Source of the DNA: Terriglobia bacterium
Lineage (GTDB): Bacteria > Acidobacteriota > Terriglobia > 20CM-2-55-15
Assembly: GCA_963664115.2 (NCBI GenBank)
Contig: CAXWPJ010000006.1
Coordinates: 224,088-288,087, forward strand
Direction of reading: 5' to 3'
DNA: 64,000 bases
Shown here: piece after piece, positions 2,913 to 39,581 of the stretch
Layout of the letters: every line of letters starts with the position of its first letter
How positions within the stretch are numbered: the stretch's first letter is position 1
The notes under the pieces: model-generated
What the model saw: only the letters and a program-made list of their open reading frames with translations
Databases searched by the model: none
What the model was told of the DNA's origin: nothing
Translations under genes and position numbers: made by a program

Positions 2913-2950
2913 TAGATATTTTTTAAGGGGTAGTGAGGAGGTATTCGAGT

Positions 2951-4693: not shown

Positions 4694-6078
4694 GAGTTAT
4701 AACCGAATCTGGTGTTTGAGGGATTGAATAAGAGCGGCGTATCTGGTTGATTTGTTGTGACAAAACTTCAAAGCAACCATAGGAGATACGCCACTGTGAG
4801 CAAGAGTAACGTGAATGGACCGGAAGGTCGAGAAACGATTGAGGATCCAGTAACAGAACTACTACGAGTTGGGGCACAGCAACTGATCCAACGCGCAGTG
4901 GAAGCCGAATTGGCAGAGCTGCTATCCCAGCACGGTGGCCGGCGAACTGAGACAGGAAACGCCGGGGTGGTACGCAACGGTTATCTGCCGGAACGCGAAC
5001 TGCAGACGGGATTGGGTCCGGTAACAGTCCAAATCCCGAAGGTCCGTGCCAAGACGGGCGAAGCTGTGACGTTCCGATCGGCCCTGGTACCACCGTACAT
5101 TCGGAAGACGAAGTCGCTGGAAGCAGCGGTGCCGTGGTTGTATTTGAAAGGCGTTTCCAGCGGCGAGATGGGTGAGGCCCTAAAAGTTCTTGTCGGTCCC
5201 CAGGCGCAGGGTCTGTCGGCGAGCACGGTATCGCGGTTGAAACAGGTTTGGGGCGAACAGTACCGCCTCGGATGCGAGGAGCGTTTGGATGCAGATCGCT
5301 GGGTCTATGTCTGGGCCGACGGCATCTACAGCGGACTTCGGGCGGAACAAACCAAGTTGTGTGCATTGGTCGTGATCGGCGTGAATGAACGCGGAGAGAA
5401 GCGTTTCCTGGCGATCGAAGACGGTGTACGGGAATCGACACAGAGTTGGCGCGAGGTCTTGTTGAAGCTGAAGTCCCGTGGGATGAATGTTCCGAAGTTG
5501 GCCATCGGTGACGGTGCGATGGGGTTCTGGGCCGCACTGGAGGAAATCTATCCCGAGACACGTCAACAACGTTGCTGGATGCACAAAGTCATGAACGTCC
5601 TCAACTGCCTGCCCAAGTCGGTCCAGGCGAAGGCGAAACAGGCCCTGCACTCGATCTGGCAGGCCGAGACGAAGGCAGACGCCGAGAAGGCATTCGACTT
5701 GTTCATTGAAACCTATGAACCGAAGTATCCGAAAGCCACACTCTGCCTGCAGAAAGACAGAGAGGAACTGCTGGCCTTTTACGACTTTCCGGCCAAGCAC
5801 TGGCAGAGCATCAGAACGACGAATCCCATTGAGTCGACCTTTGCCACCATTCGACACCGAACGAAGCGATCCAGAGGTTGCCTGACACGGGATGGCATGC
5901 TGCACATGATGTTCAAACTGGGCCAGTGCGCTGAGAACAATTGGCGACGATTACGAGGATTCGATGATCTGAGCAAGGTAATCATCGGAGTGAAATTCAA
6001 CGATGGTGTCGAAGCGACACAAGTCGATCAGGCCGCCGCTTGAATCAATCTCCTAAACACCACTTTTGACAATAACTC
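4694..6078 (+). mobile_element. IS256-family insertion sequence, intact, with 9 bp target-site duplication
   Basis: Left end GAGTTATAACCGAATCTGGTGTTTGAGGGATTGA versus the reverse complement of the right end GAGTTATTGTCAAAAGTGGTGTTTAGGAGATTGA (25/34 identical by eye). Perfect direct repeat TCGTTTCGG at 4685-4693 and 6079-6087. Length 1385 bp. Confidence 0.9.
4757..6043 (+). CDS. IS256-family (Mutator-type) transposase
   Basis: 428 aa. Typical IS256 blocks are present: ELLRVGAQQLIQRAVEAELAELL, RNGYLPERELQTGLGPVTVQIPKVR, WADGIY, QRCWMHKVMNVLN, IRTTNPIESTF. Confidence 0.95.
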   Translation: MTKLQSNHRRYATVSKSNVNGPEGRETIEDPVTELLRVGAQQLIQRAVEAELAELLSQHGGRRTETGNAGVVRNGYLPERELQTGLGPVTVQIPKVRAKTGEAVTFRSALVPPYIRKTKSLEAAVPWLYLKGVSSGEMGEALKVLVGPQAQGLSASTVSRLKQVWGEQYRLGCEERLDADRWVYVWADGIYSGLRAEQTKLCALVVIGVNERGEKRFLAIEDGVRESTQSWREVLLKLKSRGMNVPKLAIGDGAMGFWAALEEIYPETRQQRCWMHKVMNVLNCLPKSVQAKAKQALHSIWQAETKADAEKAFDLFIETYEPKYPKATLCLQKDREELLAFYDFPAKHWQSIRTTNPIESTFATIRHRTKRSRGCLTRDGMLHMMFKLGQCAENNWRRLRGFDDLSKVIIGVKFNDGVEATQVDQAAA

Positions 6079-6087
6079 TCGTTTCGG

Positions 6088-6385
6088 TTTCAGGGGTCGA
6101 AGCTTCGACGCTGCAACCAGCGGCGATCTCAGGGAGAAAGCTGCAAGAAGGGACAGCTCCGGATGCTGAGGCCTTGAGGCGAGGTCAGCAAATTGTGGAA
6201 AGTGCATATGCCATGAGTTGGATCTGGTGGAAAGCGAGCGGTTGAGCCGGGAGGACTGAGGATACATCATACAGGCGATGCTGGTGAACGGTTCCGATCT
6301 GTCGGAACGTGAAATGCCTCTGGTCCTGGACTACTTGTCGACGGCCTTTCCTGCGCGGCCTGCGGCCGCACCTGAAGAGGATTGA
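6088..6385 (+). pseudogene. Decayed cytochrome-c-like gene, downstream part (upstream part is about 4605-4693, separated by the IS256 insertion)
   Basis: Removing the IS and one TSD copy joins a hydrophobic N-terminal stretch (..VLAIVSVSG..) to ..APDAEALRRGQQIVES.. (frame 3). The sequence continues in frame 2 as ..CGKCICHELDLVESERLSRED-TGA-GYIIQAMLVNGSDLSEREMPLVLDYLSTAFP. This needs a frameshift near 6195-6205 and read-through of an in-frame TGA (6257-6259) where such domains usually have Trp. The haem motif is degenerate. Confidence 0.35.
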
Positions 6386-6480
6386 ATGAGAGAACGCCCG
6401 CCGAGGAGCTGAAACTGGACTCGCTCTGCCGGGAATCCCTCGTAAGGCAGAATGGTGATGTCGAAAGGAGGGTAGTAAAA

Positions 6481-6873
6481 ATGAGACTGTCATCGGCATT
6501 TGCGCTGGCGGCGGTGCTTCTGACAATGGCAACGCTGCCATCCGGTGTGCCGCTTGCCGCGGCGCATCATTCTCAAGCCGCGGCGTTCCATATGGATCAA
6601 TGGGTGGAAATTGAAGGGATTGTCCAGCGCTGGCTCTTCAGGAATCCACATCCCGTTCTTTACCTGGAAGTCATCGGAGAGAACGACGAACCCGTCACGT
6701 GGCAGATCGAGTTTGCCCCGGCGACCGTCCTGGCAAAGATGGGCTGGGACACCGAGACGTTTTTGCCGGGACAGGACATTGCCGCAAGAGGACACCCATC
6801 ACGCGCTCAGGGCACCTATGGCATGGCGGCTGGCGCTGAAATTACACGCGAAGATGGCAATCGGGTCCGCTGA
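6481..6873 (+). CDS. Small secreted protein, His-His mature N-terminus family (copy 1); possibly the Pfam DUF6152 family (from memory)
   Basis: ATG at 6481 preceded by AGGAGG. Signal peptide ends ..PLAAA, then HHSQAAAF. The core WVEIEGIVQRWLFRNPHPVLYL ... IEFAPATVLAKMGW ... PGQDIAARGHP is shared with the genes at 7893, 34519 and 37611. Confidence 0.85.
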   Translation: MRLSSAFALAAVLLTMATLPSGVPLAAAHHSQAAAFHMDQWVEIEGIVQRWLFRNPHPVLYLEVIGENDEPVTWQIEFAPATVLAKMGWDTETFLPGQDIAARGHPSRAQGTYGMAAGAEITREDGNRVR

Positions 6874-6982
6874 TTGAGAAACTACAACGAGCCCTCTTTG
6901 GCAGCCCTTGAGACTTCTGCCACGGGCTGTTAGGCCTTGGGTTCCGTCCGAATTTTTCGATCCCATAGGGAGTTTCAAGAAT

Positions 6983-7837
6983 ATGAACTGCACGAGGGAA
7001 GGGTTGCTGCGACAAAGAGTTCGAACCGCGTTGGGATTTTCGATTTTCGCCCTGCTTCTGCTGGGTTGTATGCCGATCCAGCTGTCGGCACAGCTGCCCG
7101 ACGCGTCCAACGGAGTGCCGGATCTGACCGGAATCTGGTCGAGAGGTAGAAATAACTGTACGCCTAATGGCGTGACCTGCCCCTTCATCTTCAGCGAAAT
7201 TCCACTGAAAGCGCGTGCGATAGGATTCATGGCCGCGTGGGACGAGGCCGCGGGACCCAAGTACGATTGTGTGCCGGCGACGTCACCGTCTGTTGTGGCG
7301 GACCCGTATTCCATTCAGATCGAGCAACAGATAGACCGCGTCATCTTCACTTACGAGAAGGACGACATCATTCGGACAGTCTGGCTGGAGGGTCACGGAC
7401 ACCCGGACCCGCAACCCTACGACTTTACAGTGCAGGGATACTCGACCGGCCGATATGAGGACGGAAACCTTGTCGTTGAGACGACGAAGTTCACCTTCGA
7501 TCCGCACGGGCTGGACGACATGGCGAACGTGCCATCCTCCACGTTGAAGCGCGTCGTTGAAAGTTCCTCCACGTTGAAGTGCGTCGTTGAAAGTTATTCG
7601 TCGGATGGAGAAAACATGAGGGCGGAGGTGGTGACAGAAGATCCCGTCTTTCTAAACGGGCCGATCCAGTTTGCCATTGAGTGGGTTCCCCAGGACGAAC
7701 CCTTGATACTTCCATATGCCTGCCTGCCAGAACTGGCGAGACAGCCGGCGCAGTTTATTCCTTCAAAATACGAAGATCCGGACATGTTCAGGGTGCGCCT
7801 TCCCGCTGCATTTCCACCGGCTGGAGAGCCCGAGTGA
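6983..7837 (+). CDS. Secreted partner protein of unknown function (copy 1)
   Basis: Signal peptide ..LLGCMPIQLSAQ. Collinear motifs DLTGIW, RTVWLEGHGHP, GYSTGRYEDGNLVVETTKF, EDPVFL and PYAC are shared with the genes at 35322 and 38128. ATG at 6983 is preferred to the listed TTG at 6908. Confidence 0.8.
   Translation: MNCTREGLLRQRVRTALGFSIFALLLLGCMPIQLSAQLPDASNGVPDLTGIWSRGRNNCTPNGVTCPFIFSEIPLKARAIGFMAAWDEAAGPKYDCVPATSPSVVADPYSIQIEQQIDRVIFTYEKDDIIRTVWLEGHGHPDPQPYDFTVQGYSTGRYEDGNLVVETTKFTFDPHGLDDMANVPSSTLKRVVESSSTLKCVVESYSSDGENMRAEVVTEDPVFLNGPIQFAIEWVPQDEPLILPYACLPELARQPAQFIPSKYEDPDMFRVRLPAAFPPAGEPE
7535..7594 (+). repeat. In-frame 30 bp tandem duplication inside the CDS 6983-7837
   Basis: TCCTCCACGTTGAAGCGCGTCGTTGAAAGT occurs twice in tandem (7535-7564 and 7565-7594) with one mismatch. 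It encodes SSTLKRVVES / SSTLKCVVES. Confidence 0.95.
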
Positions 7838-7892: not shown

Positions 7893-8264
7893 ATGCGATA
7901 CTTTTTTCCCGGTCTGATTTTAACCGGCCTCTGTTTGTCAGCTCTTCCCGGGTTTGCCCACCACGCGACGACAGCCTTCTACCATCAGGATCAGTGGGTG
8001 GAGATCGAGGGTGTCGTCCAGCAGTGGCTCTTCAGGAATCCGCATCCCGTCCTTTACGTCCAGGCTCCTGACGCGGATGGAGAGATCCGGGTGTTTGAGA
8101 TCGGTTTCGCCCCGGCAACTGTGTTGGCAAAGCGAGGGTGGAGTACGGAAACCTTTCAGGAGGGCGATGTCATTCAAGCGAGAGGGCACCCGTCCAAGGC
8201 GCCAGGGACCTATGGGTTAAGTGGAGCGGCGATCCGTCGGGAGGATGGCACCGAAGTCCGTTAG
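7893..8264 (+). CDS. Small secreted protein, His-His mature N-terminus family (copy 2)
   Basis: Signal peptide ..LSALPGFA, then HHATTAFY. WVEIEGVVQQWLFRNPHPVLYV and FAPATVLAKRGW are closely related to copy 1 at both protein and DNA level. Confidence 0.85.
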   Translation: MRYFFPGLILTGLCLSALPGFAHHATTAFYHQDQWVEIEGVVQQWLFRNPHPVLYVQAPDADGEIRVFEIGFAPATVLAKRGWSTETFQEGDVIQARGHPSKAPGTYGLSGAAIRREDGTEVR

Positions 8265-8391
8265 AGGGCTCCTGGAGGTTGTCGAAAGTCATAGTCCTTA
8301 GGTCTTGCGCCAACCCGTGTAAGTTGAATAAAATTGGCTGTTTCGAATAGCTACATCTGCATATAAATCACAATTGGGTATAAGGAGATTT

Positions 8392-9411
8392 ATGACTCGA
8401 ATCAGTGGAGCCTCATTGCTGCTCGTTATAGTCGGGCTGATGGCTCAACCGGTAGAAGCCCGTCCGGAATTCTTCATGCAGTTCCAGAGTGATCCGTTTC
8501 GGAACGTGGAGCTGGATACCTGCGGGGTTTGTCACGAGAATCCGGGAGGCGGCGGTCCTCGAAACGAATTCGGTCTGACCTTCGCTGAGGCAGGATTCCA
8601 GATCACGCCGATGATGAGGGCGAATTATCCGGACCGATTCACGGTCACAACGTTGGAAACCGGAAACACACCCACGATCTCGGAACCGAACGTTGTCTCC
8701 AAAATTTACTTGTCGGACCCGGACAATGAATTGATGGTTGTCGAGTTTCTTGCGATAGACGAGGCCAACGCTTTGCTGGAACCCACAATGCAGGTCGTGA
8801 GTCTGTTGGGCGGTGCGGTCGGGGGGGAAGATGACCAGACGCCGGAGAATTCGATGAGCTTCTTCATTACCAGTACAGGTCCCGGCGATGGGGCCAACCT
8901 GGGCGGGTTGGCCGGCGCGGACGCGCATTGCCAGTCACTTGCGGACGCCGCAGGGCATGCAGACAAGACCTGGCGCGCATACCTCAGCACGAGCTTTGAT
9001 GGAGAGCCCGCCCTCAACGCAGGCGACCGCGTCGGCGGCGGCCCCTGGTATAACGCCAATGGGCTTCTCGTTGCGCAGGGCGTGCTCGACTTGCACAGTG
9101 ACGGGAACCGGCTTAGTAAAATGGGCTCTCTGAATGAAAGAGGAGAAGTCGTCAACGGCAGGGGAGACGATCCCAACCGCCACGATATCCTTACAGGAAC
9201 CCTGTTAAACGGTATGGCGGCAGTCGACATGAATTGCAGCAATTGGACCAGCAATGGTGAGGGCAGCGCTCTGCTGGGTCACCATGACCGCGAAGGTGGG
9301 GGGGACAATGGTAGTTCCTGGAATTCAGCCCATGCTTCGAGAAGTTGCAGTCAGGCCGACTTGCAGGCGACCGGCGGCGACGGCCTGTTCTACTGCTTCG
9401 CTATCGACTAA
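8392..9411 (+). CDS. Secreted protein with an N-terminal CxxCH motif and a C-terminal endostatin/DUF1554-like (C-type-lectin-fold) domain
   Basis: ATG at 8392 preceded by AAGGAG. Signal peptide ..MAQPVEA. CGVCH at 8521-8535 is followed by NPGGGGPRNEFG. The C-terminal ~185 aa (FFITSTGPG..GGLAGADAHCQ..TWRAYLS..CSNWTS..LFYCFAID) resembles the collagen XV/XVIII endostatin sequence as I remember it. Confidence 0.8.
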   Translation: MTRISGASLLLVIVGLMAQPVEARPEFFMQFQSDPFRNVELDTCGVCHENPGGGGPRNEFGLTFAEAGFQITPMMRANYPDRFTVTTLETGNTPTISEPNVVSKIYLSDPDNELMVVEFLAIDEANALLEPTMQVVSLLGGAVGGEDDQTPENSMSFFITSTGPGDGANLGGLAGADAHCQSLADAAGHADKTWRAYLSTSFDGEPALNAGDRVGGGPWYNANGLLVAQGVLDLHSDGNRLSKMGSLNERGEVVNGRGDDPNRHDILTGTLLNGMAAVDMNCSNWTSNGEGSALLGHHDREGGGDNGSSWNSAHASRSCSQADLQATGGDGLFYCFAID

Positions 9412-11612: not shown

Positions 11613-11857
11613 TGAGTCCCTTTCGTTAAGTAATAATTCCGTGAGGGCTTCTAAAGGCGTAGTTTACGCCGCCTTTCGGAGTTGAGGCAACCGTCGGTCA
11701 CGCCCTTCAAATGGTTACTATCGACAGACTCCACTGTCCTTGTGATTGAATCATCCCTTCACGATTCCGTTATTGGATTTGCCGTATAGATCGTGCAGGA
11801 TAGCTTCAGATGCAGACGCCTGCCCAGTTTGTGACCAATCTGAAGGAGATTCGGCGG

Positions 11858-27965: not shown

Positions 27966-28662
27966 CCGGCATGCTCGTCCGACTGAGACATTCAACGCAG
28001 ACGCTTCGGACGAACACCAACTCATCTGATTTGATGGACGGAAAGGGAAGCATCAACCCGGAGAATAAGGATCATGATGTGACCAAGGGGATTGGCATTT
28101 ATTGGGGCCCGTCCGGGTCGGGCGCCATCACTGCCATCGACGGGGAACTTGAATTCTTCCACCTCGTTGTCCAGCAGATACCGGGGTAGACGTCCATTTC
28201 CTGAGCGTTACGCCCCTACCCTTAAAGGCGAGCGGTTTGAAGCGGCCTGCGGACCCTGCCGGCTGCCTACCCCCATCTATGGTTTCTCCTAGCTTATTTC
28301 TCAAGAGGAGCCCTGCATTTTAATGACACTGTAAATTGTTATTTTCAAGATGTTTGCGGCGTTATTTGGCTAGTTTTATTGGGGTCGGAAGGTCAGGAAT
28401 CAAAGCAGGCACACCCATTGGAGCGGGCGCTCATCGAGCGCGCCTTCCGAATGCAGATCGCGATGGATTTTGAAAGGTGCTTCCACCACTCTTTCATCTC
28501 CAAATGGCCTGCTTAAGAGAGGCTAAGAGTCCCGGAAAGTAGAGGTTGACTCGCCCATTGCGGCGGTATAGCATTTCGCACTAAGTCTCGTCTCCTCACT
28601 GATAATGGGGGAGTTACGAGTGATTGAACCTTTTTCGTGTGTTTCGAGTGGAGGAAAACTCT

Positions 28663-31600
28663 ATGAAGCGACTAGTTACATGTCTTCTGGGTGTGGTCTT
28701 GATGACCGCGCTTGTATCCGTGCCAATGTTTGCGCAGGGTACAGCCCAGATTACAGGAACCATTTCAGACGCCACCGGCGCATTGTTGCCGGGCGTCGAT
28801 GTGTCTGTGACGAACACCGCGACGGGCGTGACCCGTGCGGTGGTCAGTAACGAAACCGGAGCCTATTCGTTGCAGAGCCTTCCGATTGGTGCCTACCAGT
28901 TGGAGGTGAGCTTGCCGGGCTTCCAGACCTTCGTGCAGACCGGCGTTTTGGCAGTCAATGACTCGGCCAATATCAATGTGAGCTTGCAGGTTGGCCAGGT
29001 GGCGCAGACCATCGAGGTTCAGGCCAATGCAGCCCTCGTTGAGACTCGTACGGTGGGTGTCGGCGAGCTCATTGAAAGCGCACGAATTCTGGAACTGCCC
29101 TTGAACGGCCGGAACGTGACCGAGTTGATCGTGCTCTCAGGTGCCGCGGTGTCGACGGGGACGTCGTCTTCGCGGAGCATGCCGGGGCAGCAGGAGATTT
29201 CGGTTGCGGGCAGCCAGCAGGGCGCTGTGGCCTACCTGTTGGACGGGGCACCCCACAACAACTGGTACGACAATCTGGCATTGCCGCTGCCGTTCCCGGA
29301 TGCGCTGGGTGAGTTCAAGATCGAAACCAGTGCGCTGCAGGCCCAGCAGGGACTGCGCTCGGGCGCGAACGTCAACGCCGTCACGCGCTCTGGAACGAAC
29401 GAGTTTCACGGCAACCTGTTCTGGTTCGTAAGGAATGACTTGTTCGGTGCCCGCGAGTATGGCGCCGCACGCAACAGTACGCTGAAGAGGAACCAGTACG
29501 GCGGGACCATCGGCGGACCGATCGCCCAGAACAAGCTGTTCTTCTTTACCGGCTACCAGGCCACGATCCAGCGGCGGGATCCCGGGACCACGGAACGTTA
29601 CCTTCCGACGCCCTATGCATTATCCACAGGCGACTGGAGCAAGATGTTGGACCCAGGATGCAGACCGCCGACTTCGAGTCTGTCCTCGACGCTCGAAAAT
29701 AGCACGACGGCGTCCGGCTATACCGGTGGCAACAAGATCGATCCGGCCTTGTACAGCCCGGTCGCGATGAATCTCATGAGTCGACTGCCGACCAACCTGA
29801 CCGACGACTGTGGCCGTCTCCTGTTCGGCAACATTTTGCAGGACAACGACTGGCAGTTGGTCAGCCGCGTGGACTATCAGATGTCCGATTCCCACTCCAT
29901 CCTGGGTCGTGTTCTGGTCACAACCGCGGATCGACCCAACCCGTATTCGATATCGGGCAATCCGCTGGCCAGCACCGTTGCTGGCTGGGATGACATGGCG
30001 CAGTCCATCACGTTGGGTGACACCTGGCTGATCAACCCGACAACGGTGTTGTCGACGCGTCTGGCGGTCAACTACAGCGAAATTTTACGTCTGGGCGCGG
30101 AATTCTTCAGCTGGGTCGATCTGGGCGTCAACAACTACTACACGTATCCCGACGTGGAGAAGTTCTTACGGATGGGCGCGGATGACGGCTTCTCGCTGGG
30201 CGGTTGTACGACCAATCCGGCGCCGTTTAAGACGTTCTCGGCCAGCATCAATTCCGACCTGAGTCTGTCCCGCGGCGACCACCAGTGGGGTTTGGGCGGA
30301 TATTTCAATCGGCTGGACTCCAACGGATACGCCAACTGTAACTCGGCCGGGAACTTCGACTTTGAAGGGAACCACACCGGCTGGGGCCTGGCCGACTTGA
30401 TGATCGGTCAGACGAATGACTTCACGCAGGCGACGCCGAACACGGCGCTGTCGAAGAAGTGGGTCGGCGCACTATATGTGGCCGACACCTGGCGCCTGAC
30501 GCCCAATGTGACGATGAGTTACGGCGTGCGTTGGGAGCCCGATTATCCCGAGACGATCACGAACGACCGCATCGTCAAGTTCTCCCGGGCTGCCTTTGAT
30601 GCCGGGACCAAGAGCTCGGTGTTCGTGAATGCGCCTGCGGGTATGTCCTTCGTGGGCGACTCCGGATTCCAGGGCACGAGCGGCCGGGACACGTTCGTTG
30701 CGAATTTCGCACCGCGGGTCGGTCTGGCATGGGACCTGTTCGGCGATGGCCGGACTTCGATCCGTGCATCCGGCGGGATCGGTTATGACTATCCCGACGG
30801 GCAGTTCCATCTGTGGACCTCCCTGACGCCGCCGTTCGGCGCGGACGTGAGGATTCCGAATGCGACCCTGGCCGATCCCTGGGCGACATTCCCCGGTGGG
30901 CGGACCCATCCGGTGAACACCACCGATCCCAACATCGGGTTCCCGCGGTTCCCGCGCATGTCGGCGATAGGAGATAACCTCCGGTCGTCGCAGACACAGA
31001 ACTGGAACCTGGCCCTGCAGCAGCAGGTCGGGGGCGACTGGCTGATGTCGACGACGTACATGGGCAGCCACACCATCAACATGGCGGGGGCCACCCAGAT
31101 GAACCCGGCGATTTACTTCCCGGGTGCGCCGGTGGACGGAGCGTGTACGGTCAGCCATTCCGGGGGGGTTATGATCCCGGCCGGAACTTACACGCTGAAC
31201 ACAGGCGGAGGCAGTTGCTCCACGAACGGCAATGTCAACAATCGGCGGATCCTGTCCCTGGTGGACGCCGCTAACGGACTCAATTATGGAGCTCTTGGCC
31301 TCACGCACAGCGGCGGGACGTCCAGCTACAACGGGCTGCTCGTCAGCATGCAGCGGCGCGCCGCTACAGGCATCAATATCAACACCAACTACACGTGGTC
31401 TCACTGCATCTCTCCGTATCACGATGATGGATTTGGCGGGACGGGTTTCAATGGAGACAACGTGTATCACGACCCGGACAACCGGGGCCGCAGCCGCGGG
31501 AACTGCCAGCAGGACCGGCGTCACAACTTCACGTTCACGACCATCGCCCGCTCGCCTGAGTTTGCCAATGCCGGCCTCCGGGCGGTCGCTTCGGACTGGG

Positions 31601-32043
31601 GTTTGTCGGTGATCTACCGCGCGAACTCGGGCAGCTATCTGAACATTCGGAGCGGTTCCCGGGATCTTGCGCGCAACGGCGTGAACCCGGGTAACCAGCT
31701 CGTGAACTACAACGGTGGCACGACGACCGGGGACGACGGGCCGGACGGGCAGTACCTGGTCCCGGCAGCGTTCTCGAACGCTGCGAAGGGCACATTCGGC
31801 AACCTGGGCCGTCGCAGCGTCCGGGGACCGAAGCAGTGGGATTTCGACGTCGCGCTGGCCCGGACGTTCAATCTGGGTGAGACCGAGACGCTGGAATTCC
31901 GGCTCGAGGCCTATAACCTGACGAACAGTTACCGTCCAGGCAGCCCGGAAGCCCGCGTGGGCCGCAGGAACTTTGGTGTGACTCGGGCTTTGGGTGCCGA
32001 CGATCCCCGGGTTCTGCAGTTCGCTCTGAAGTTGGGCTTCTAA
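28663..32043 (+). CDS. TonB-dependent receptor with an N-terminal carboxypeptidase-regulatory-like domain
   Basis: ATG at 28663 preceded by GAGGAAA. Signal peptide ..VPMFAQG. GTISDATGALLPGVDVSVTNTATGVTRAVVSNETGAYSLQSLPIGAYQLEVSLPGFQ is the CarbopepD_reg-like domain. A plug region follows, and the protein ends in the C-terminal aromatic residue (..FALKLGF). Confidence 0.9.
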   Translation: MKRLVTCLLGVVLMTALVSVPMFAQGTAQITGTISDATGALLPGVDVSVTNTATGVTRAVVSNETGAYSLQSLPIGAYQLEVSLPGFQTFVQTGVLAVNDSANINVSLQVGQVAQTIEVQANAALVETRTVGVGELIESARILELPLNGRNVTELIVLSGAAVSTGTSSSRSMPGQQEISVAGSQQGAVAYLLDGAPHNNWYDNLALPLPFPDALGEFKIETSALQAQQGLRSGANVNAVTRSGTNEFHGNLFWFVRNDLFGAREYGAARNSTLKRNQYGGTIGGPIAQNKLFFFTGYQATIQRRDPGTTERYLPTPYALSTGDWSKMLDPGCRPPTSSLSSTLENSTTASGYTGGNKIDPALYSPVAMNLMSRLPTNLTDDCGRLLFGNILQDNDWQLVSRVDYQMSDSHSILGRVLVTTADRPNPYSISGNPLASTVAGWDDMAQSITLGDTWLINPTTVLSTRLAVNYSEILRLGAEFFSWVDLGVNNYYTYPDVEKFLRMGADDGFSLGGCTTNPAPFKTFSASINSDLSLSRGDHQWGLGGYFNRLDSNGYANCNSAGNFDFEGNHTGWGLADLMIGQTNDFTQATPNTALSKKWVGALYVADTWRLTPNVTMSYGVRWEPDYPETITNDRIVKFSRAAFDAGTKSSVFVNAPAGMSFVGDSGFQGTSGRDTFVANFAPRVGLAWDLFGDGRTSIRASGGIGYDYPDGQFHLWTSLTPPFGADVRIPNATLADPWATFPGGRTHPVNTTDPNIGFPRFPRMSAIGDNLRSSQTQNWNLALQQQVGGDWLMSTTYMGSHTINMAGATQMNPAIYFPGAPVDGACTVSHSGGVMIPAGTYTLNTGGGSCSTNGNVNNRRILSLVDAANGLNYGALGLTHSGGTSSYNGLLVSMQRRAATGININTNYTWSHCISPYHDDGFGGTGFNGDNVYHDPDNRGRSRGNCQQDRRHNFTFTTIARSPEFANAGLRAVASDWGLSVIYRANSGSYLNIRSGSRDLARNGVNPGNQLVNYNGGTTTGDDGPDGQYLVPAAFSNAAKGTFGNLGRRSVRGPKQWDFDVALARTFNLGETETLEFRLEAYNLTNSYRPGSPEARVGRRNFGVTRALGADDPRVLQFALKLGF

Positions 32044-32325: not shown

Positions 32326-33189
32326 ATGCGTTTTTGTCGTTTTGGAGAGGACCGTCTCGGTCTGGTCGAAGGTTCCCAGGTGCGGGATGTCACTGCGGCG
32401 CTCGATGTATTGCCCGATTACCGGTATCCACTGCCCGTAGTCGATCAGTTCATCGTAAATCTCGACAAGGTTTCGGCAAAGGCAAAGGCCATTGCCGCGG
32501 ATGCACCTCTCCTGGATCTGGCAGGGCTGAAGCTCCTGAGCCCTGTGGCGAATCCCAGCAAGATCGTCGGTGCGCCCGTTAACTACCAGAAACATATCGA
32601 CGAAGCCAAAGCCGATGCCGGTATTAATTCTGGGAACCCGGCCAACCTGGCCCCGATCCAAAAGATCGGCCTGTTTCTGAAGGCCTGTAGCGCGCTGGTG
32701 GGGCCGGGCGAGGGCATCGGTTTGCGAAAACTGGACCGCCGTAACGATCACGAAGTGGAGTTGGCCGTGGTGATGGGAAAAGCGGCGAACAGTGTGGCAG
32801 CGGCGGATGCGCTCGATTACGTCGCCGGTTATGCTATTGGCCTCGACCTTACGATTCGGGGTCCGGAAGAACGTTGCCTCAGGAAATCTCCCGACAGCTA
32901 CGCCGTTCTGGGTCCGTGGATCGTGACTGCGGACGAGATCGATGACCCGAACAACCTCGACCTGAAGCTTACGGTCAACGGTGAAGTCCGACAGGATTCC
33001 AATACGAAGCTCATGATCCTCAACGTGCGCCAGCTTATCGAGTACGCGTCGTCTTTCTACACGCTGCAGCCCGGCGACATCATTATTACAGGGACGCCGG
33101 AAGGGGTCAGTCCTATCGTGCCGGGAGACACGATCGTTGCGACTATAGAAAAGATCGGATCCATGGAAGTTGCCGTGCGGGCCGCGTGA
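32326..33189 (+). CDS. Fumarylacetoacetate hydrolase (FAH) family protein
   Basis: 287 aa. HEVELAVVMGK, GPWIVTADEIDDPNNLDLKLTVNGEVRQDSNT and GDIIITGTPEGV are FAH-family signatures. Confidence 0.9.
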   Translation: MRFCRFGEDRLGLVEGSQVRDVTAALDVLPDYRYPLPVVDQFIVNLDKVSAKAKAIAADAPLLDLAGLKLLSPVANPSKIVGAPVNYQKHIDEAKADAGINSGNPANLAPIQKIGLFLKACSALVGPGEGIGLRKLDRRNDHEVELAVVMGKAANSVAAADALDYVAGYAIGLDLTIRGPEERCLRKSPDSYAVLGPWIVTADEIDDPNNLDLKLTVNGEVRQDSNTKLMILNVRQLIEYASSFYTLQPGDIIITGTPEGVSPIVPGDTIVATIEKIGSMEVAVRAA

Positions 33190-33242: not shown

Positions 33243-34328
33243 GTGAAGGAATCGAAAGAACTCAAGGCCCAGGCCTTTTCCTTTCAGAAGCCTGAAGCGA
33301 CAGAGGAACTGAAGGATTTCTACGACAGGCTGGGGGCCAGAAACATTGTGCCACTGTGGGAAATTCTCGGGGATGTACTAACAGCGTCGCCCACGACTCC
33401 CTGTGTGCCGGCCATATGGCGTTTCGACGACATCCGGCCCCTCCTGATGGAAGCCGGAGACTTGATCACGACGGAGGAAGCCGAACGCCGCGTCCTGTCG
33501 TTGCAGAATCCCGGGCTGAATGGTCAGCCGTGGATCACGACGAGCCTGTATGCCGCTCTCCAGTTGGTCCAGCCGGGTGAAATTGCTCAGTCCCATCGTC
33601 ACACCGCATCGGCCCTGCGATTCGTACTGGAGAACGGTGACGGTGGATACACATCGGTCGACGGCGAAAAAAGCACGATGCAGCCGGGTGATTTTGTTCT
33701 CACGCCTTCCTGGACGTTCCATGATCACGGAAATCCCGGAGACAAACCTATCATCTGGATGGACGGTCTGGATGTTCCGATTATCAATATGCTGGGTGTT
33801 AATTTCGCGGAGACCTGGCCCGAGCTGACCTATCCGGTGACCAAGACCGAGGGCGACGCCCTGACACGCTTCGGGAACAACCTTCTCCCTGTCGAATACA
33901 AGTCGTCATCTATGGCAGCGCCGATTTTTAACTACCCCTATTCACGGAGTCGCGAAGTACTTGAGCAGCTCTATAAGAACGGTCCGGTCCATGAGTGTCA
34001 CGGCGTGAAGTTGCAGTATGTGAATCCAGCTACCGGAGGGTACCCGATGCCGTCGATCGCAGGATTCATTCAGTTGCTGCCGCCCGGGTTCAAAGGAGAA
34101 GCGTACCGGTCGACCGATGGTACGGTATATTGCCCGACCGAAGGCAGCGGGCGGACGACAATTGGCAACCATACCTACGAGTGGAAGGAGCACGACGTCT
34201 TCGTTGTTCCGACATGGTATCGGGTGACCCATGAAACTGAAGAGGGCGCAGTCCTGTTCAGTTTCTCGGACCGCGCGGCGCAGAAGGCCCTGGGTTTGTG
34301 GAGAGAAGAAGCCCCGATTCTCGCTTGA
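33243..34328 (+). CDS. Gentisate 1,2-dioxygenase (bicupin)
   Basis: 361 aa. FYDRLGARNIVPLWE, HRHTASALRFVLENGDGGYTSVDGEKSTMQPGDFVLTPSWTFHDHGN is the characteristic cupin/His region of gentisate dioxygenases. Confidence 0.85.
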   Translation: MKESKELKAQAFSFQKPEATEELKDFYDRLGARNIVPLWEILGDVLTASPTTPCVPAIWRFDDIRPLLMEAGDLITTEEAERRVLSLQNPGLNGQPWITTSLYAALQLVQPGEIAQSHRHTASALRFVLENGDGGYTSVDGEKSTMQPGDFVLTPSWTFHDHGNPGDKPIIWMDGLDVPIINMLGVNFAETWPELTYPVTKTEGDALTRFGNNLLPVEYKSSSMAAPIFNYPYSRSREVLEQLYKNGPVHECHGVKLQYVNPATGGYPMPSIAGFIQLLPPGFKGEAYRSTDGTVYCPTEGSGRTTIGNHTYEWKEHDVFVVPTWYRVTHETEEGAVLFSFSDRAAQKALGLWREEAPILA

Positions 34329-34518: not shown

Positions 34519-34914
34519 ATGAAATCTAAAATTCTTGTTCTGCTTGTCGCTGGAATATTGGTATCGGGCGTGGCGGCCTATGCCCACCACTCCTTCACAG
34601 CGACTTACGATGAAGATGGATTGGTCGAGATTGAAGGGGAGTTGGTGCAGTTCCTTTTCCGCAATCCCCACTCCTGGGTCCATGTGATGGCTCCGGATGA
34701 AAATGGCGATTTGGTTCGCTACGGCGTCGAATGGGGTGGAGCCGGCCAGTTGGCGGGCGGCGGCGTGACCCGGTCTACGCTGAGGCCTGGCGACCACGTC
34801 ATTATTAGCGGTAACCCGGGGCGCAATCCTGCGGATCATAGAATCCGGATGCGGAGTCTCCGGAGGACGTCCGACAATTTTGGTTGGGGATTTGAAGGCG
34901 AAGACTTCGACTAG
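34519..34914 (+). CDS. Small secreted protein, His-His mature N-terminus family (copy 3)
   Basis: Signal peptide ..SGVAAYA, then HHSFTATYDEDGLVEIEGELVQFLFRNPHSWVHV. The mature part differs from copy 4 at only three residues. Confidence 0.9.
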   Translation: MKSKILVLLVAGILVSGVAAYAHHSFTATYDEDGLVEIEGELVQFLFRNPHSWVHVMAPDENGDLVRYGVEWGGAGQLAGGGVTRSTLRPGDHVIISGNPGRNPADHRIRMRSLRRTSDNFGWGFEGEDFD

Positions 34915-34957
34915 AGCTAAGCTTCACCCCTGCTGATCCCAGCAAAACGAAGACCAT

Positions 34958-35006
34958 AGGGCACGGTGTCCGCGTATTCGAGGATGCCGTGCCCTTACGC
35001 CGTTTT
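34958..35006 (+). terminator. Terminator-like hairpin after 34519-34914
   Basis: AGGGCACGG ... CCGTGCCCT (9 bp stem, ~20 nt loop) followed by ..CGTTTT. Confidence 0.4.
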
Positions 35007-35321
35007 GGTACCATTTTGATGAAGCCAATCGGTCGTGTCCGAACAGACAGCCGGGCGCTCCGAATGCCCTAGCCCCACCCGAGGTGTCCTGATGGTGACT
35101 GTGACGCTTCGCGGCGACAACCCGTGAGAAATGCGGGCTAAGACTTTTGCAATCAAATTCTTGACAAAGGATGTGCGGCTGTAGATAGTGGGGTGTCGCG
35201 CCTGTTTTCGGGATAAAAGCGGCTGTTTTGAGGCGCAGAGGTCACCCGAGAATCGTGTCGCGCCCCAAGGGGGAAAACGCCGCTCGTATTCGGAAGCTCA
35301 ACCGCCGAACCGGAGGATTAA

Positions 35322-36254
35322 ATGGATAAAGTCAGCCAGGCCAGGATTGTCGCTCCAGCGCTTCTGCTGGGTGCAATGCTGATTGTCGTGCCCGCCTTTG
35401 CGCAGACGGATTTGTCCGGCGAATGGAGGGTTGTCAGAAGTGAAGACAACTTTCACAATCCTTACAACGGAGATACGGGAGGCCTTCCGATGAACGCATC
35501 CGCGTTCAGGAGAGCCGACAGTTGGGACGCCTCGATCCAGTCACTGCCCGAATGGCAGTGTCGTCCCCACTCGGGCGCGTACATCACACGCGGTCCTTCA
35601 GCTCTGAAAATTTTCAAGCAAGTCGATCCTGTATCCCGGGAAATCGTTGCGTTCCATACCGAATGGTTGCGTTCAATCGACAATCCAATCTGGATGGACG
35701 GACGCGGGCATCCCTCAGAGTTAGCGCCGCATACCTGGTCGGGCTTCTCAACCGGCGAGTGGCAGGGCGATGTGCTCAAAGTGACGACGACGCATATGAA
35801 AGAGGATTATGTCCGGCGGAATGGCCCGCCTCAGGGCGACCGAACCACTATGACCGAATACCTGAGCCTCCGGTCGGTTGGGAATGAGGACTTTCTGTCC
35901 TGGACCAAGGTCGTATACGACCCCGACTACCTGACTGAGCCGCTCGTCCGAACAACGGAGTATATTCGGCGCCCGAACGCCCAAGTACCGCCTTATCCGT
36001 GTACGATCGTCACGGAAGTGGACCGGCCCAAAGGCTATGTGCCGAGCTGGTTCCCGGGTGAGAATCCGCATCTTGGAGAGCACGAAGAACACCTCGGTAT
36101 ACCCGCCGAAGCCAGCCGGCAGGGAGCCATCACGATGTATCCTGAGTTTCGGCAGGTCATCAAAGAGAACGGCTGGGAAGCGCGCCGCTTCGAATCAAAC
36201 ACGCCGGCGTTCGAGCAGCAACAAAATCAGCCGGCACCGCCGCAGCAACGATAG
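35322..36254 (+). CDS. Secreted partner protein of unknown function (copy 2)
   Basis: Signal peptide ..VVPAFAQ. TDLSGEWRV, PIWMDGRGHP, GFSTGEWQGDVLKVTTTH, YDPDYLTEP and PYPC are collinear with the genes at 6983 and 38128. GGAGGA RBS. Confidence 0.85.
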   Translation: MDKVSQARIVAPALLLGAMLIVVPAFAQTDLSGEWRVVRSEDNFHNPYNGDTGGLPMNASAFRRADSWDASIQSLPEWQCRPHSGAYITRGPSALKIFKQVDPVSREIVAFHTEWLRSIDNPIWMDGRGHPSELAPHTWSGFSTGEWQGDVLKVTTTHMKEDYVRRNGPPQGDRTTMTEYLSLRSVGNEDFLSWTKVVYDPDYLTEPLVRTTEYIRRPNAQVPPYPCTIVTEVDRPKGYVPSWFPGENPHLGEHEEHLGIPAEASRQGAITMYPEFRQVIKENGWEARRFESNTPAFEQQQNQPAPPQQR

Positions 36255-36360
36255 TTACTATGGGGCTGGCAGAATGCGGTGAGTCCCGAAAGGTTTCGAA
36301 AGCCTGCGGAACTTTCTATTTCGGGAACAACTCTTGTAATACAGTAGGTTGGAGTCATCG

Positions 36361-37485
36361 ATGAGGATAATCACCTTGAAAACCTCTGCCGGTTTGCGTA
36401 TCGCGCTGATGTGCGCTGCCCTCACTCTGCTCGCAGGAGCTGGCCTGGTGGAACGTGCACCGGCCCAGCAGAACGCCGAAATAGAAGTCGTCCATGTGCA
36501 AGGCAACATCTGGTTGTTTGGAGGAGTCGGTGGCAACGTCGTTGCTTCCCTCGGCCCTGACGGCGTCCTGTTAGTGGATGCTGGCCTCGAACCACGGGCG
36601 CCGGCATTGTTAGACGCGATCGGGGAACTGCAACGGGTACTCGATTTTGGGAGCGCACCGGCCCCCGCACGTTTCGGGGGAGCGGAGGGTTTGAAGACGA
36701 CGCCGACCTACACCCGCGCGCCGCCGAAACCGATTCGTTACATCATGAACACCCACTACCACCCGGATCACACGGGCGGCAATCAAACGCTTGCCGCTTC
36801 CGGAATAACCTACGCGGGGGGTAACGTTGCGGGCAGCATCAACGACGCGGATTTCGGTGCTGCGGTCTACGCGCATGAAAATACGCTCTTCCACATGGTG
36901 GATATGGACGTTCCGTTCCGCGGCCTGCCGACGGACACGTACTACAAAGAATTCTATAAACTCAGCCACTTCTTCAACGGCGAGGGCGTGCGTTTGGTTC
37001 ACCAGCCGAATGCCCATACCGATGGCGACAGCCTCGTGCACTTCCCGCGATCCGACGTCATCGTTGCGGGAGATATTTTTTTGACGACGAGCTATCCGAT
37101 CATCGATGTGGACCATGGGGGGCATGTCAACGGTATCGTCGACTCCTTGAACTACATACTCGACCTGGCCATCGCATCATTCAGAATGGAAGGAGGCACC
37201 TTGATCGTTCCCGGTCATGGAAGAATCAGCGATTCGGCCGACGTCGGCTACTATCGGGATATGGTGACGATCCTCAGGGACCATATTCAAATTATGATAA
37301 GCCGGGGCATGTCGCTCGAAGAAATAAAGGCAGCACAACCCACGCTGGGTTACGATGGCCGCTATGGCTCGGACACGGGTTTTTGGACGACTGACGACTT
37401 TGTTGAGGCTGTGTACCGGAACCTGACCGAAACCCCGGGGCCGATCCTGTATCCGGGATTAGCACCATACCCTTCGACGTTCTGA
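36361..37485 (+). CDS. Secreted MBL-fold metallo-hydrolase
   Basis: Signal peptide followed by the beta-lactamase-fold pattern, including NTHYHPDHTGGN (HxHxDH) and later His/Asp ligands (HTDGD, PGHG). Confidence 0.85.
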   Translation: MRIITLKTSAGLRIALMCAALTLLAGAGLVERAPAQQNAEIEVVHVQGNIWLFGGVGGNVVASLGPDGVLLVDAGLEPRAPALLDAIGELQRVLDFGSAPAPARFGGAEGLKTTPTYTRAPPKPIRYIMNTHYHPDHTGGNQTLAASGITYAGGNVAGSINDADFGAAVYAHENTLFHMVDMDVPFRGLPTDTYYKEFYKLSHFFNGEGVRLVHQPNAHTDGDSLVHFPRSDVIVAGDIFLTTSYPIIDVDHGGHVNGIVDSLNYILDLAIASFRMEGGTLIVPGHGRISDSADVGYYRDMVTILRDHIQIMISRGMSLEEIKAAQPTLGYDGRYGSDTGFWTTDDFVEAVYRNLTETPGPILYPGLAPYPSTF

Positions 37486-37610: not shown

Positions 37611-38006
37611 ATGAAGTTCAAACTGATCGCCCTTGCGCTTGCTGCCATGTTGGTGTCGGGTGTGGCTGCCTACGCTCACCATTCGTTCACCGCAACCTAC
37701 GATGAAGATGAATTGGTCGAGATCGAAGGGGAGTTGGTGCAGTTCCTTTTCCGCAATCCGCACTCCTGGGTCCATGTGATGGCTCCAGATGAAAATGGCG
37801 AGATCGTTCGCTACGGGGTCGAATGGGGTGGAGCCGGCCAGTTGGCGGGCGGGGGTGTGACCCGCTCCACGCTGAGACCCGGCGACCACGTCATTATTAG
37901 CGGTAACCCGGGGCGCAATCCTGCGGATCATAGAATCCGGATGCGAAGTCTTCGACGGACATCTGACAATTTTGGATGGGGATTTGAAGGCGAGGACTTC
38001 GACTAG
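37611..38006 (+). CDS. Small secreted protein, His-His mature N-terminus family (copy 4)
   Basis: Near-duplicate of 34519-34914. The signal peptides diverge, the mature parts are almost identical, and the DNA differs mostly at third codon positions. Confidence 0.9.
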   Translation: MKFKLIALALAAMLVSGVAAYAHHSFTATYDEDELVEIEGELVQFLFRNPHSWVHVMAPDENGEIVRYGVEWGGAGQLAGGGVTRSTLRPGDHVIISGNPGRNPADHRIRMRSLRRTSDNFGWGFEGEDFD

Positions 38007-38127: not shown

Positions 38128-38922
38128 ATGATTCACAGAGTCCCACCAAAGACCGCTCTGTTGGCGTTGGCGGTTGTGGTGGTCATTGCACTTGTTGCGG
38201 GAGTGCCGGATGCATCGGCCCAGACAGGCGGCGGTGAGGCGCCACAGAGTGCGAGAGACGCGGCCCCGATCGATCTCGGAGGGTACTGGGTGTCTTTGGT
38301 CAACGAGGATTGGCGTCATCGTATGTTCACGGCGCAGGTTGGTGATTACGATCTCGTGCGTCTAAATGCCGATGGTCGCCGTATGGCGGACGCCTGGGTC
38401 CAAGAGGCGTCGCCGACGGGAGACGACTGTCTAATGACCTATGGTGCGGCGGGTATCATGCGCTTGCCTGGCCGGTTGCACATCGATTGGGCCGACGACA
38501 ACACACTGCAAGTCGACCTGGATGCCGGAACTCAGACCCGGCAGTTCTTTTTCGGAGAATCCGAATCGCCAGGTGGGCAACCGACCCGGCAAGGCTATTC
38601 CGTAGCTCGGTGGGAGACCTCCGGCGGCTCGGGGCGAGGCGGCGTGTCCATGAACGACATTCCATTGGGCGGACACCTGAAGGTGGTGACAACCAACCTT
38701 TCGGCCGGGTATCTCTTCAAGAACGGAATCCCGTATAGTAGCGACGCAGTGATGACCGAGTTTTTTGTCCCCATCGTGGAACCGGATGGTAGTCAGTACG
38801 TCTTGGTTCAGACCTTTGTTCAGGATCCGACTTATCAGACCCAGACCTTCGTGCGGACGCTGACCTTCAAGAAGGAATCCGACGGTCGGAACTGGAATCC
38901 GACGCCCTGTACTGAGTACTAA
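38128..38922 (+). CDS. Secreted partner protein of unknown function (copy 3)
   Basis: ATG at 38128 preceded by GGAGGA. Signal peptide ..VPDASAQ. IDLGGYWVS, GYSVARWE, LKVVTTNL, QDPTYQTQ and TPC are collinear with the genes at 6983 and 35322. Confidence 0.8.
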   Translation: MIHRVPPKTALLALAVVVVIALVAGVPDASAQTGGGEAPQSARDAAPIDLGGYWVSLVNEDWRHRMFTAQVGDYDLVRLNADGRRMADAWVQEASPTGDDCLMTYGAAGIMRLPGRLHIDWADDNTLQVDLDAGTQTRQFFFGESESPGGQPTRQGYSVARWETSGGSGRGGVSMNDIPLGGHLKVVTTNLSAGYLFKNGIPYSSDAVMTEFFVPIVEPDGSQYVLVQTFVQDPTYQTQTFVRTLTFKKESDGRNWNPTPCTEY

Positions 38923-39089: not shown

Positions 39090-39581
39090 ATGGATTTTTT
39101 GCTGTGGCTTGAAACGACTTCTCTCGGAACGTGGGTGCGCGAGTCGCCCTCCTTGTGGGCTTATCCCAGCGTTCTGTTCCTTCACTCGGTTGGCCTCGCA
39201 TCCCTCGTAGGTATCAACGCCGCAGTTGACTTGCGCGTCCTCGGCTTTGCAAAGGGCATCCCTTTAAAGCCGCTTTCGCAGATGATCCCGCTGATGTGGG
39301 TCGGTTTTGGAGTGAACGCTGTTTCGGGGCTGATGCTCATTCTGGCCAGCGCGTCGACATTACTGCTGAACCCGACTTTCTGGGTGAAGATGTTATTCGT
39401 CACGGCGGCTGTGGTAACCATATGGCTGATGGACAAACGGGTGTTTGCCAACGCAGACGAGGGGGCCATACCCATGGAAAGCAAGGTCCTGGCGGGGGTC
39501 TCGCTCTTCTGTTGGACTGGAGCCATGGTATCGGGCCGGTTGATTGCTTACCTGGGTCCGGAAGCAGGGTTCCTGGTTTAA
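39090..39581 (+). CDS. Hypothetical integral membrane protein (about four TM segments)
   Basis: 163 aa, strongly hydrophobic with four helix-length stretches. No family recognised with confidence. Confidence 0.6.
   Translation: MDFLLWLETTSLGTWVRESPSLWAYPSVLFLHSVGLASLVGINAAVDLRVLGFAKGIPLKPLSQMIPLMWVGFGVNAVSGLMLILASASTLLLNPTFWVKMLFVTAAVVTIWLMDKRVFANADEGAIPMESKVLAGVSLFCWTGAMVSGRLIAYLGPEAGFLV

Follow-up and report, generated by a model that had tools for sequence, protein, structure and literature searches.

A widely conserved, uncharacterised secreted module of DUF6152, Part and metallo-beta-lactamase-fold proteins in a Terriglobia genome

In the histidine brace, copper is chelated by the amino group and the side chain of His1 together with a second histidine. 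The free N-terminus is also put to use on OB (oligonucleotide/oligosaccharide-binding) folds, where TIMP acts through Cys1 and HypC through Cys2. Among hydrolases of the metallo-beta-lactamase (MBL) fold, SdsA1 carries an SCP2-like domain that recruits the substrate. The term histidine brace is used here for the N-terminal-His copper site as defined in PMC10952591, and PMC10656224 describes SilF as a chaperone for Ag(I)/Cu(I) in the periplasm. We compared these systems with a secreted gene module in a stretch of 64,000 nt (the window) from a Terriglobia bacterium (GCA_963664115.2, contig CAXWPJ010000006.1, positions 224,088-288,087, forward strand). The module consists of small proteins of the family DUF6152 and of a secreted partner family of ~260-310 aa, here named Part (PartA1, PartA2 and PartB), joined at its main locus by an MBL-fold protein. 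This module is genuine, conserved widely and so far uncharacterised.

The initial annotation of this window had proposed a recurring two-gene periplasmic module in three copies, with a fourth small gene beside the first. The open reading frames (ORFs) that it named are present, and all seven proteins are secreted as it had said: their translations have a basic/hydrophobic N-terminal segment followed by AxA, and the same holds for the MBL-fold protein and for the protein encoded at 8374. The occurrence of four genes of one rare family and three of another inside 32 kb is far beyond chance. Secretion, novelty and adjacency of the proposed module stood, but the way in which its genes pair and the constancy of DUF6152 in it had to be revised as follows.

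The genes of the three supposedly separate pairs are real, but the second and third pairs are halves of one operon, DUF6152_c-PartA2-MBL-DUF6152_d-PartB-DUF6644. In a survey of 80 metagenome loci from the PartA2 side, an MBL-fold gene was directly next after PartA in 57 of the 59 loci with room for one, and a DUF6152 gene directly upstream of PartA, as at 34519, was found in 2/57 loci only. The order PartA-MBL-DUF6152-PartB was found in 29 loci. When at least 2.6 kb of downstream sequence was available (33 loci), 10 loci had this order and 21 had PartA-MBL-PartB without DUF6152, 10 of the latter running on into genes for a fumarylacetoacetate-hydrolase family enzyme (FAH) and a gentisate dioxygenase (GDO). 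DUF6152 is a facultative component of a PartA-MBL-PartB operon. A counterpart, locus L006 of a Terriglobia metagenome-assembled genome (MAG), is collinear with the window operon at 85-93% amino-acid identity.

Natural gene fusions confirm the link of PartA with the MBL-fold protein and with PartB. PartA::MBL fusions of ~600 aa make up 32 of the 150 best representatives (21%; within P0361-P0510), in addition to one at L001 1168-2949 (-), and PartA::PartB single chains of ~515 aa were found in P0044, P0057, P0059 and P0361. No DUF6152::Part fusion was present among the 150 representatives.

The MBL-fold protein of the window has intact metal ligands (HYHPDH at residue 136, H223, D242 and H290), and all ligands are kept in ~28/95 orthologues. 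The degenerate forms range from a partial 'SDDH' to a full 'SLHN' and still keep ~55% identity and their place in the operon (loci including L005, L008, L009, L012, L015-L025 and L087-L099). Essentially no ligands are left in a gammaproteobacterial type, S-L-H-N...T, and DUF6152 is the next gene in all but one of these loci. A general tie between ligand loss and the presence of DUF6152 was considered and rejected; it is true for one clade and is phylogenetically confounded. The nearest NCBIfam model, TIGR04559 'quinoprotein relay system' metallohydrolase, gave 60.6 bits against a cut-off of 280. The literature search on this relay system returned only a review of the Pseudomonas ped cluster, the SoxH-like protein of which belongs to a different family.

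Around the operon, the 408-bp gap between DUF6152_c and PartA2 (34915-35321) is unusually long. A sigma-70-like site, TTGACA-17-GATAGT, lies within it at 35161-35189; the promoter scan overall was not above shuffled expectation. Promoter and terminator scans were no better than those of shuffled sequence and give no operon boundaries. In a close Terriglobia relative (L004/L007, ~5980-7400), PartA2 and PartB are gone and the MBL gene is reduced to a short C-terminal remnant (aa 304-368) between the two DUF6152 copies, a pattern that a deletion between the DUF6152 repeats or around them could explain.

The four small proteins form one family, as had been proposed: all match PF19649 (64.2-75.4 bits, E 1e-17 to 4e-21, gathering threshold 27 bits) and share A/HH (the slash marking predicted cleavage), VEIEG and FRNPH. 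DUF6152_c and DUF6152_d are near-identical over their aligned length when compared by eye. To compare N-termini, 136 DUF6152 ORFs were gathered from 170 loci. The HH pair lies exactly 24 residues ahead of F/W-x-NPH in 94/94 distinct c/d- and a/b-type sequences, and it is preceded by Ala at -1 in 91 of these 94. Among the 19 divergent ORFs listed, 17 have AHH(S/G) near the N-terminus and, where the sequence reaches, (N/S)PH ~26-27 residues past the first His; the remaining two look over-extended. Among the 136 ORFs, all copies that are clearly of full length have His-His and the invariant (N/S)PH ~27 residues on. The predicted signal-peptide cleavage at AxA/HH leaves a mature protein that would begin with His1-His2 and carry His29 at a fixed spacing. 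In 25/25 distant loci, conservation among the four proteins of the operon was also highest for DUF6152, with a median identity of 71% against 59% for PartA, 54% for MBL and 50% for PartB.

An alignment-based AlphaFold2 (AF2) model of DUF6152_d reached a mean predicted local distance difference test (pLDDT) of 86.5, with strands at 36-46, 52-59, 65-73, 93-101 and 108-116 and a helix at 75-80 between strands 3 and 4. Foldseek searches against the PDB returned OB folds only, namely the single-stranded DNA-binding protein Rim1 (probability 1.0, E 7e-4, TM 0.70) and anticodon-binding domains of lysyl-tRNA synthetases, and no meaningful match came from a profile search of the PDB. DUF6152 is accordingly modelled as an OB fold of ~108 residues in the mature form. 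The model contains a single beta-bridge at residue 30; pairing of the N-terminus with strand 1 in the register i + j = 71 would set His23/His24 beside F47/R48 of FRNPH. No paper on DUF6152, DUF6644 or their PF numbers was found in the literature searched, and a search on the histidine brace together with the OB fold returned nothing relevant to the DUF6152 family. The c/d type has a conserved acidic/aromatic C-terminal tail, R-P-S-D-G-F-G-W-G-F-E-G-E-D-F-D (alignment A4), which is missing from the a/b type, the one that pairs with PartA1. The tail may act as a peptide by which DUF6152 docks onto PartB or the MBL-fold protein.

Part is a large, uncatalogued family. PartA2 has homologues in >3,269 clusters at 90% identity and 6,357 representatives at 50% identity, 2,132 of them with E <1e-10 and all unnamed or 'hypothetical', and none of the 325 homologous clusters of PartA1 is annotated. 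Part proteins had no match in Pfam, NCBIfam, PADLOC or PDB sequence/profile searches, and 52 members scanned individually against Pfam gave no domain. The expectation that neither protein belongs to a characterised family was therefore borne out, the small one being a DUF and the partner having no match in these databases. The homology of the three partners, which had been read by eye, holds transitively by BLASTP (PartA1 vs PartA2, 3e-13; PartA2 vs PartB, 2e-10), but the direct comparison of PartA1 with PartB is not significant. Three of the shared motifs need minor correction: W(L/M)(E/D)G.GHP is absent from PartB, and in PartA1 the C-terminal PC reads AC and the last residue of G(Y/F)S.G.W is Y.

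In each of the three subfamilies, thirteen positions reach a conservation of >=85%: W35, P47, C80, P92, G141, S143, L152, T156, P170, D200, P201, P224 and C227. Apart from one disulfide, they are structural; they include no catalytic or metal-binding constellation and no conserved His/Glu/Asp cluster, in agreement with the initial annotation, which had recognised no catalytic motif. W35 of DL(S/T/G)GxW, conserved at 93-100% per subfamily, sits in the first model strand (residues 33-37), and the invariant C80-C227 forms one disulfide that staples the barrel. The AF2 model of PartA2 (pLDDT 78.7, predicted TM score 0.76) has 8-9 antiparallel strands, with a ~55-residue insertion of short helices after strand A followed by eight strands (95-216) and a helical tail. 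Its best Foldseek matches were the bacterial avidins shwanavidin and rhizavidin (E 3.6e-3, TM 0.48 on the target and 0.22 on the query). From this model, Part is predicted to be a GxW-type up-and-down barrel, calycin/avidin-like at the level of the fold only. A kinship with avidins at the sequence level was rejected, as hhalign against streptavidin gave a probability of 0.09. PartB orthologues that are 45-52% identical come after a DUF6152 or MBL gene in other phyla.

PartA1 of the window has a 30-bp in-frame tandem duplication at 7535-7595, which repeats 10 aa (SSTLKRVVES followed by SSTLKCVVES). The duplication is absent from all seven homologues aligned, is specific to the window and may impair this PartA1 copy. 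A lipoprotein assignment of PartA1 from its LLLGC segment was rejected, as the Cys is not conserved and P0241 has Y there.

The adjacency of the small gene and its partner, which had been put forward for a check of gene neighbourhoods, is kept in other genomes and across phyla. It is conserved in Acidobacteriota, Gemmatimonadales, Gammaproteobacteria and Alphaproteobacteria, soil and sediment bacteria among them. From the DUF6152 side, 79 genome loci were obtained from the 80 best matches to the 131-aa subtype, all of them MAGs of Terriglobia/Acidobacteriota, Gammaproteobacteria (including Ca. Rariloculaceae), Rhodospirillales and Burkholderiales; a Part gene lay within 1.5 kb of DUF6152 in 35/79 loci, a fraction that describes this subtype only. 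In ~76 non-redundant adjacent pairs, c/d-type DUF6152 was paired with PartB in 33 and with PartA2 in 8, the a/b type paired with A1-type Part only (6/6), and a third 'W-x-NPH' type mostly had divergent Parts as partners. A specific DUF6152-Part partnership is therefore argued from the co-diversification of the subtypes. Pairs were also found on plasmids of cultured strains. The Part (302 aa) and DUF6152 genes overlap by 4 bp on a plasmid of Novosphingobium humi G5, where they adjoin two DUF6644 genes and a gene for a cytochrome c'-like CxxCH protein; the locus tags there are NYQ05_RS20620-20630. A plasmid of Croceibacterium atlanticum 26DY36 has the order DUF6152-DUF6152-Part-TonB receptor-MarR at locus tags WYH_RS16155-16165, and a further pair is on a megaplasmid of Novosphingobium sp. 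PP1Y.

At the first copy, the pair that had been named (6481-6873 with 6983-7837) turned out to be the looser one, although PartA1 does pair with a DUF6152 gene, the downstream one. DUF6152 comes 25-80 bp after PartA1 in four of four unrelated contexts (the Gemmatimonadales contig L165/L166, and L167-L170), with a further DUF6152 upstream of PartA1 in L165, and PartA1 is followed by DUF6152 in L171-L174 as well. Terriglobia relatives of this copy have the order Ank-DUF6152-PartA1-DUF6152-X-LLM-PQQ-DH, where PQQ-DH is a pyrroloquinoline quinone (PQQ) dehydrogenase; in L173/L174, a PQQ dehydrogenase gene is inserted between the upstream DUF6152 and PartA1. Because the downstream pair is kept and the upstream one is interrupted in these loci, PartA1 and DUF6152_b form the tight unit. 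The fourth small gene does precede a different secreted protein, as had been noted. This protein X has an orthologue of 338-339 aa at the same position in L171-L174 and always comes after DUF6152_b in the Terriglobia relatives; no tblastn match to it was listed in the other surveyed loci. Protein X is a lineage-specific follower of DUF6152_b, and its DUF1554 match in Pfam (E 1.4e-4) is under the cut-off.

Two transposase genes of the first-copy region (DDE group 1 and Mutator family; 1099-2631 and 4757-6043) separate HXXSHH, an ankyrin gene and DUF6152_a. They point to recent insertion-sequence insertions into this locus, because the same three genes are contiguous in the relatives L171/L172. 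Two large ankyrin-repeat proteins are encoded in the window (2933-4372 and 11810-12979), and one ankyrin gene is kept directly upstream of the DUF6152-PartA1 locus in L171-L174. The features of both loci are collected in Table 1.

Table 1. Coordinates of the module genes and their neighbours in the 64,000-nt window
Feature	Coordinates	Strand	Remarks
DUF6152_a	6481..6873	+	PF19649 E 3e-20; context AAA/HHS, FRNPH; upstream, loosely linked copy
PartA1	6983..7837	+	secreted, predicted Part-family barrel; BLASTP 3e-13 to PartA2
DUF6152_b	7893..8264	+	PF19649 E 1e-17; starts 55 bp after PartA1
Protein X, 345 aa, secreted	8374..9411	+	CGVCH haem-c motif; weak DUF1554/endostatin-like region
TonB-dependent-type outer-membrane transporter	28624..32043	+	CarboxypepD_reg + OMP_b-brl_4, Pfam E 1e-163; heads the locus
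Fumarylacetoacetate (FAA)-hydrolase family enzyme, probably maleyl- or fumarylpyruvate hydrolase	32326..33189	+	PF01557 E 4.5e-55
Gentisate 1,2-dioxygenase	33243..34328	+	TIGR02272, 502 bits vs cut-off 442
DUF6152_c, 131-aa c/d type	34519..34914	+	PF19649 E 2.7e-20
PartA2, secreted, predicted Part-family barrel	35322..36254	+	AF2 pLDDT 78.7
Secreted MBL-fold protein, intact HYHPDH	36349..37485	+	PF00753, 62 bits vs cut-off 22.7
DUF6152_d	37611..38006	+	PF19649 E 3.8e-21; common position between MBL gene and PartB
PartB, secreted Part-family paralogue	38128..38922	+	BLASTP 2e-10 to PartA2
DUF6644, small hydrophobic predicted membrane protein	39090..39581	+	PF20349 25.8 bits, just below cut-off 27

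The operon lies in a catabolic setting. Between 26.8 and 42.9 kb, the window encodes in order a MetE-like protein, the TonB-type outer-membrane protein (OMP), the FAA-family hydrolase, gentisate 1,2-dioxygenase, the operon itself, DUF6644, a GFO/IDH/MocA oxidoreductase and a tannase. The order OMP-PartA-MBL-PartB-FAH-GDO is also found in Vicinamibacterales and many contigs from soil, and the same OMP is upstream of PartA in L002, L109, L111, L113, L143, L164 and others. A SusD-like partner for the CarboxypepD_reg transporter was sought among the following secreted proteins and no SusD match was found, so the locus is not of the SusC/SusD type, and the PADLOC models of anti-phage defence gave no match for nine proteins.

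Other neighbours recur less regularly; they were surveyed by targeted HMM/tblastn searches and by Pfam on 140 dereplicated flanking ORFs. PQQ dehydrogenase genes are beside or near DUF6152 in L013, L014, L070, L076, L078, L083, L173 and L174, and the window has one at 13069-14973, within 5 kb of DUF6152. DUF6644 homologues are beside the module in two phyla (L001, L004, L006, L010, L031, L072, L090 and the Novosphingobium plasmids L175 and L177), as a tandem duplicate in Novosphingobium (L175 5376-6351; L177 6854-7857). DUF6644 is weakly similar to DUF2214/UPF0093 and has a His near the N-terminus, at the same position in three sequences compared by eye.

As a tentative working model, which we favour while holding its chance of being right to be somewhat below even, we propose that periplasmic binding or adaptor barrels and a metal-binding OB protein are arranged around the MBL-fold protein and act on an aromatic compound, imported through TonB, before gentisate is cleaved. 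Signal peptidase would expose His1-His2 of DUF6152, and the N-terminus would fold back along strand 1, beside His29. His1-His2, His29 and a conserved Asp near position 9 could then form a single metal site of the N-terminal-histidine type, for which copper is our first guess and zinc, nickel or iron are possible. Part is read as a ligand- or protein-binding adaptor barrel because it has no conserved catalytic or metal residues; PartA and PartB flank the secreted, SoxH-like MBL-fold protein and probably bind it. DUF6152 would be an optional fourth subunit that handles the metal ion, and the physical complex that we infer would capture or process the imported aromatic in the periplasm before the ring is cleaved. 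The substrate class is suggested because the TonB-type transporter, gentisate 1,2-dioxygenase and the FAA-family hydrolase adjoin the operon in the window.

Several results weigh against this model. The partnership of DUF6152 and Part is not obligatory, because 44/79 DUF6152 loci had no Part gene within 1.5 kb and 21/33 operons were without DUF6152. About 70% of the MBL orthologues lack the canonical ligands (equivalents of H116/H118/H196), so a mechanism centred on a hydrolase is not general. The census of 140 flanking ORFs contained no copper or zinc homeostasis genes and no dominant neighbour. The link to gentisate is found mainly in Acidobacteriota, and the gammaproteobacterial flanks are housekeeping genes. 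As for the metal site, residues 23-25 of DUF6152 have pLDDT <50 in the AF2 model, and the placement of His1/His2 near His29 would follow from the hairpin register and not from the model coordinates.

The same observations were weighed under other explanations. The module could be a redox accessory, in which DUF6152 would be a metal carrier working with PQQ dehydrogenases and c-type cytochromes, DUF6644 would be a HemJ/CopD-like bundle, and Part would hold a quinone or hydrophobic cofactor, for which YceI beside cytochrome b561 offers a model. The eight loci in which DUF6152 adjoins PQQ dehydrogenases and the one within 5 kb in the window point this way, as do the CxxCH protein X that always follows DUF6152_b in Terriglobia, the Novosphingobium humi pair near two DUF6644 genes and a cytochrome c'-like CxxCH protein, the conserved His of DUF6644 (three sequences) with its weak DUF2214/UPF0093 similarity, and the name of the NCBIfam model nearest to the MBL protein, 'quinoprotein relay system zinc metallohydrolase'. 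However, the score for that model is 60 bits against a cut-off of 280, the PQQ dehydrogenase, cytochrome and DUF6644 neighbours occur in a minority of loci, and a ligand set that consists of His alone and lacks Cys and Met does not resemble the known electron-transfer copper sites, which makes this account doubtful. Pure ligand binding or uptake would do without a metal: Part and DUF6152 would bind an aromatic acid or polyphenol delivered by TonB, His-His would contact the carboxylate or phenolate, and the degenerate MBL protein would be another binder. Calycin-like and OB folds are classic binders of small ligands, and the lack of conserved catalytic residues in Part, the frequent ligand loss in MBL, the adjacent TonB-type OMP and MFS (major facilitator superfamily) transporters and the Croceibacterium order DUF6152-DUF6152-Part-TonB receptor all agree with such a role. 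Nevertheless, the strict invariance of both N-terminal His and of the NPH His, with their spacing fixed, fits a metal site better than a pocket for an organic ligand, and 71% identity across phyla is unusually high for a substrate-binding protein beside which the catabolic genes differ; we consider this explanation unlikely.

DUF6152 itself could be the catalytic or redox centre, a new OB-fold N-terminal-histidine site (His1-His2 + His29) performing copper or iron oxidative chemistry on phenolics held by Part, with MBL as a mostly dead scaffold. If true, this would explain the 71% conservation of DUF6152, the loss of MBL ligands and the free-standing Part+DUF6152 pair, but we regard it as a long shot. 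A regulatory role modelled on the OB-fold TIMPs, which chelate the catalytic zinc of metalloproteinases via residue 1, would have the DUF6152 N-terminus enter the MBL di-metal site, inhibiting it or supplying the missing ligands in trans. DUF6152 has an OB fold and is secreted, its processed N-terminus is invariant, its gene comes directly after the MBL gene in 29 loci, and the fully degenerate 'SLHN' MBLs, with one exception, always precede it. This last association is confounded, however, coming from essentially one gammaproteobacterial clade; DUF6152 has no TIMP-like cysteines, and Part+DUF6152 pairs without an MBL gene are found in Gemmatimonadales, Sphingomonadales and the first copy of the window, and the role is very unlikely. 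Finally, there might be no functional unit at all, but co-resident paralogues of two secreted families expanded in Acidobacteriota and brought together by local duplication, as the heterogeneous flanking genes, the many stand-alone DUF6152 genes and the near-identical duplicates c and d would allow. Adjacency in at least four phyla/classes, which is subtype-specific and has 25-80 bp gaps or overlaps, together with the fusions among the partners, leaves this reading strongly disfavoured and barely credible.

Despite its size, the Part family has no counterpart in Pfam, NCBIfam or the PDB, and defining the pair would give an annotation to thousands of genes of Acidobacteriota and Proteobacteria from soils and sediments. 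Among the module genes, many are part of TonB-linked loci of aromatic catabolism, which bear on carbon turnover. The invariant, putatively processed His-His on a predicted OB fold is a testable candidate for a new metal-site architecture, and an MBL partner that repeatedly loses its ligands inside a conserved operon lends itself to the study of how pseudo-enzymes evolve. The cultured carriers Novosphingobium humi G5, Novosphingobium sp. PP1Y and Croceibacterium atlanticum 26DY36 are open to genetic and biochemical work.

Because at least one defining test failed for each of the families compared, the module was filed under none of them. Like CopC, YcnI and lytic polysaccharide monooxygenases, DUF6152 has an invariant His as predicted mature residue 1, a second invariant His in the chain and a periplasmic or extracytoplasmic location. 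Unlike them, it is modelled as an OB fold and not as an Ig-/fibronectin-like beta-sandwich, and its residue 2 is also an invariant His; there was no Pfam match to the CopC or YcnI families and there were no copper genes in the neighbourhoods. DUF6152 resembles CusF and SilF as a small secreted protein of ~100 residues with a predicted OB fold and putative metal binding. It differs from CusF by having no Met-x-Met/Trp ligand motif (alignment A4) and by not being encoded with an RND (resistance-nodulation-division) efflux pump, and CusF had no sequence or profile match to DUF6152 and was not in the top 50 Foldseek matches. With TIMP and HypC it shares the OB fold and a proposed function at the free N-terminal residue, but it starts with His-His instead of Cys, has no TIMP disulfides, and has in Part a partner with no metal site.

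Part, in turn, is like the calycins (lipocalins, avidins, YceI and ZinT) in the G-x-W of the first strand and in being secreted and without catalytic residues, and it may share their antiparallel up-and-down barrel. It has no sequence relationship to them and is set apart by the ~55-residue insertion after strand A and by a C-terminal tail tied by a family-specific disulfide, and from the avidins also by twice the size. Unlike in SoxH and SdsA1, the domain added to the MBL protein is N-terminal and calycin-like, the model score is 60 vs 280 bits and ~70% of the orthologues are without ligands. In a loose resemblance to SoxH and SdsA1, the MBL protein of the module is secreted and has HxHxDH in the window copy; in 21% of the representatives it is fused to a non-catalytic binding domain, analogous to the SCP2-like domain of SdsA1.

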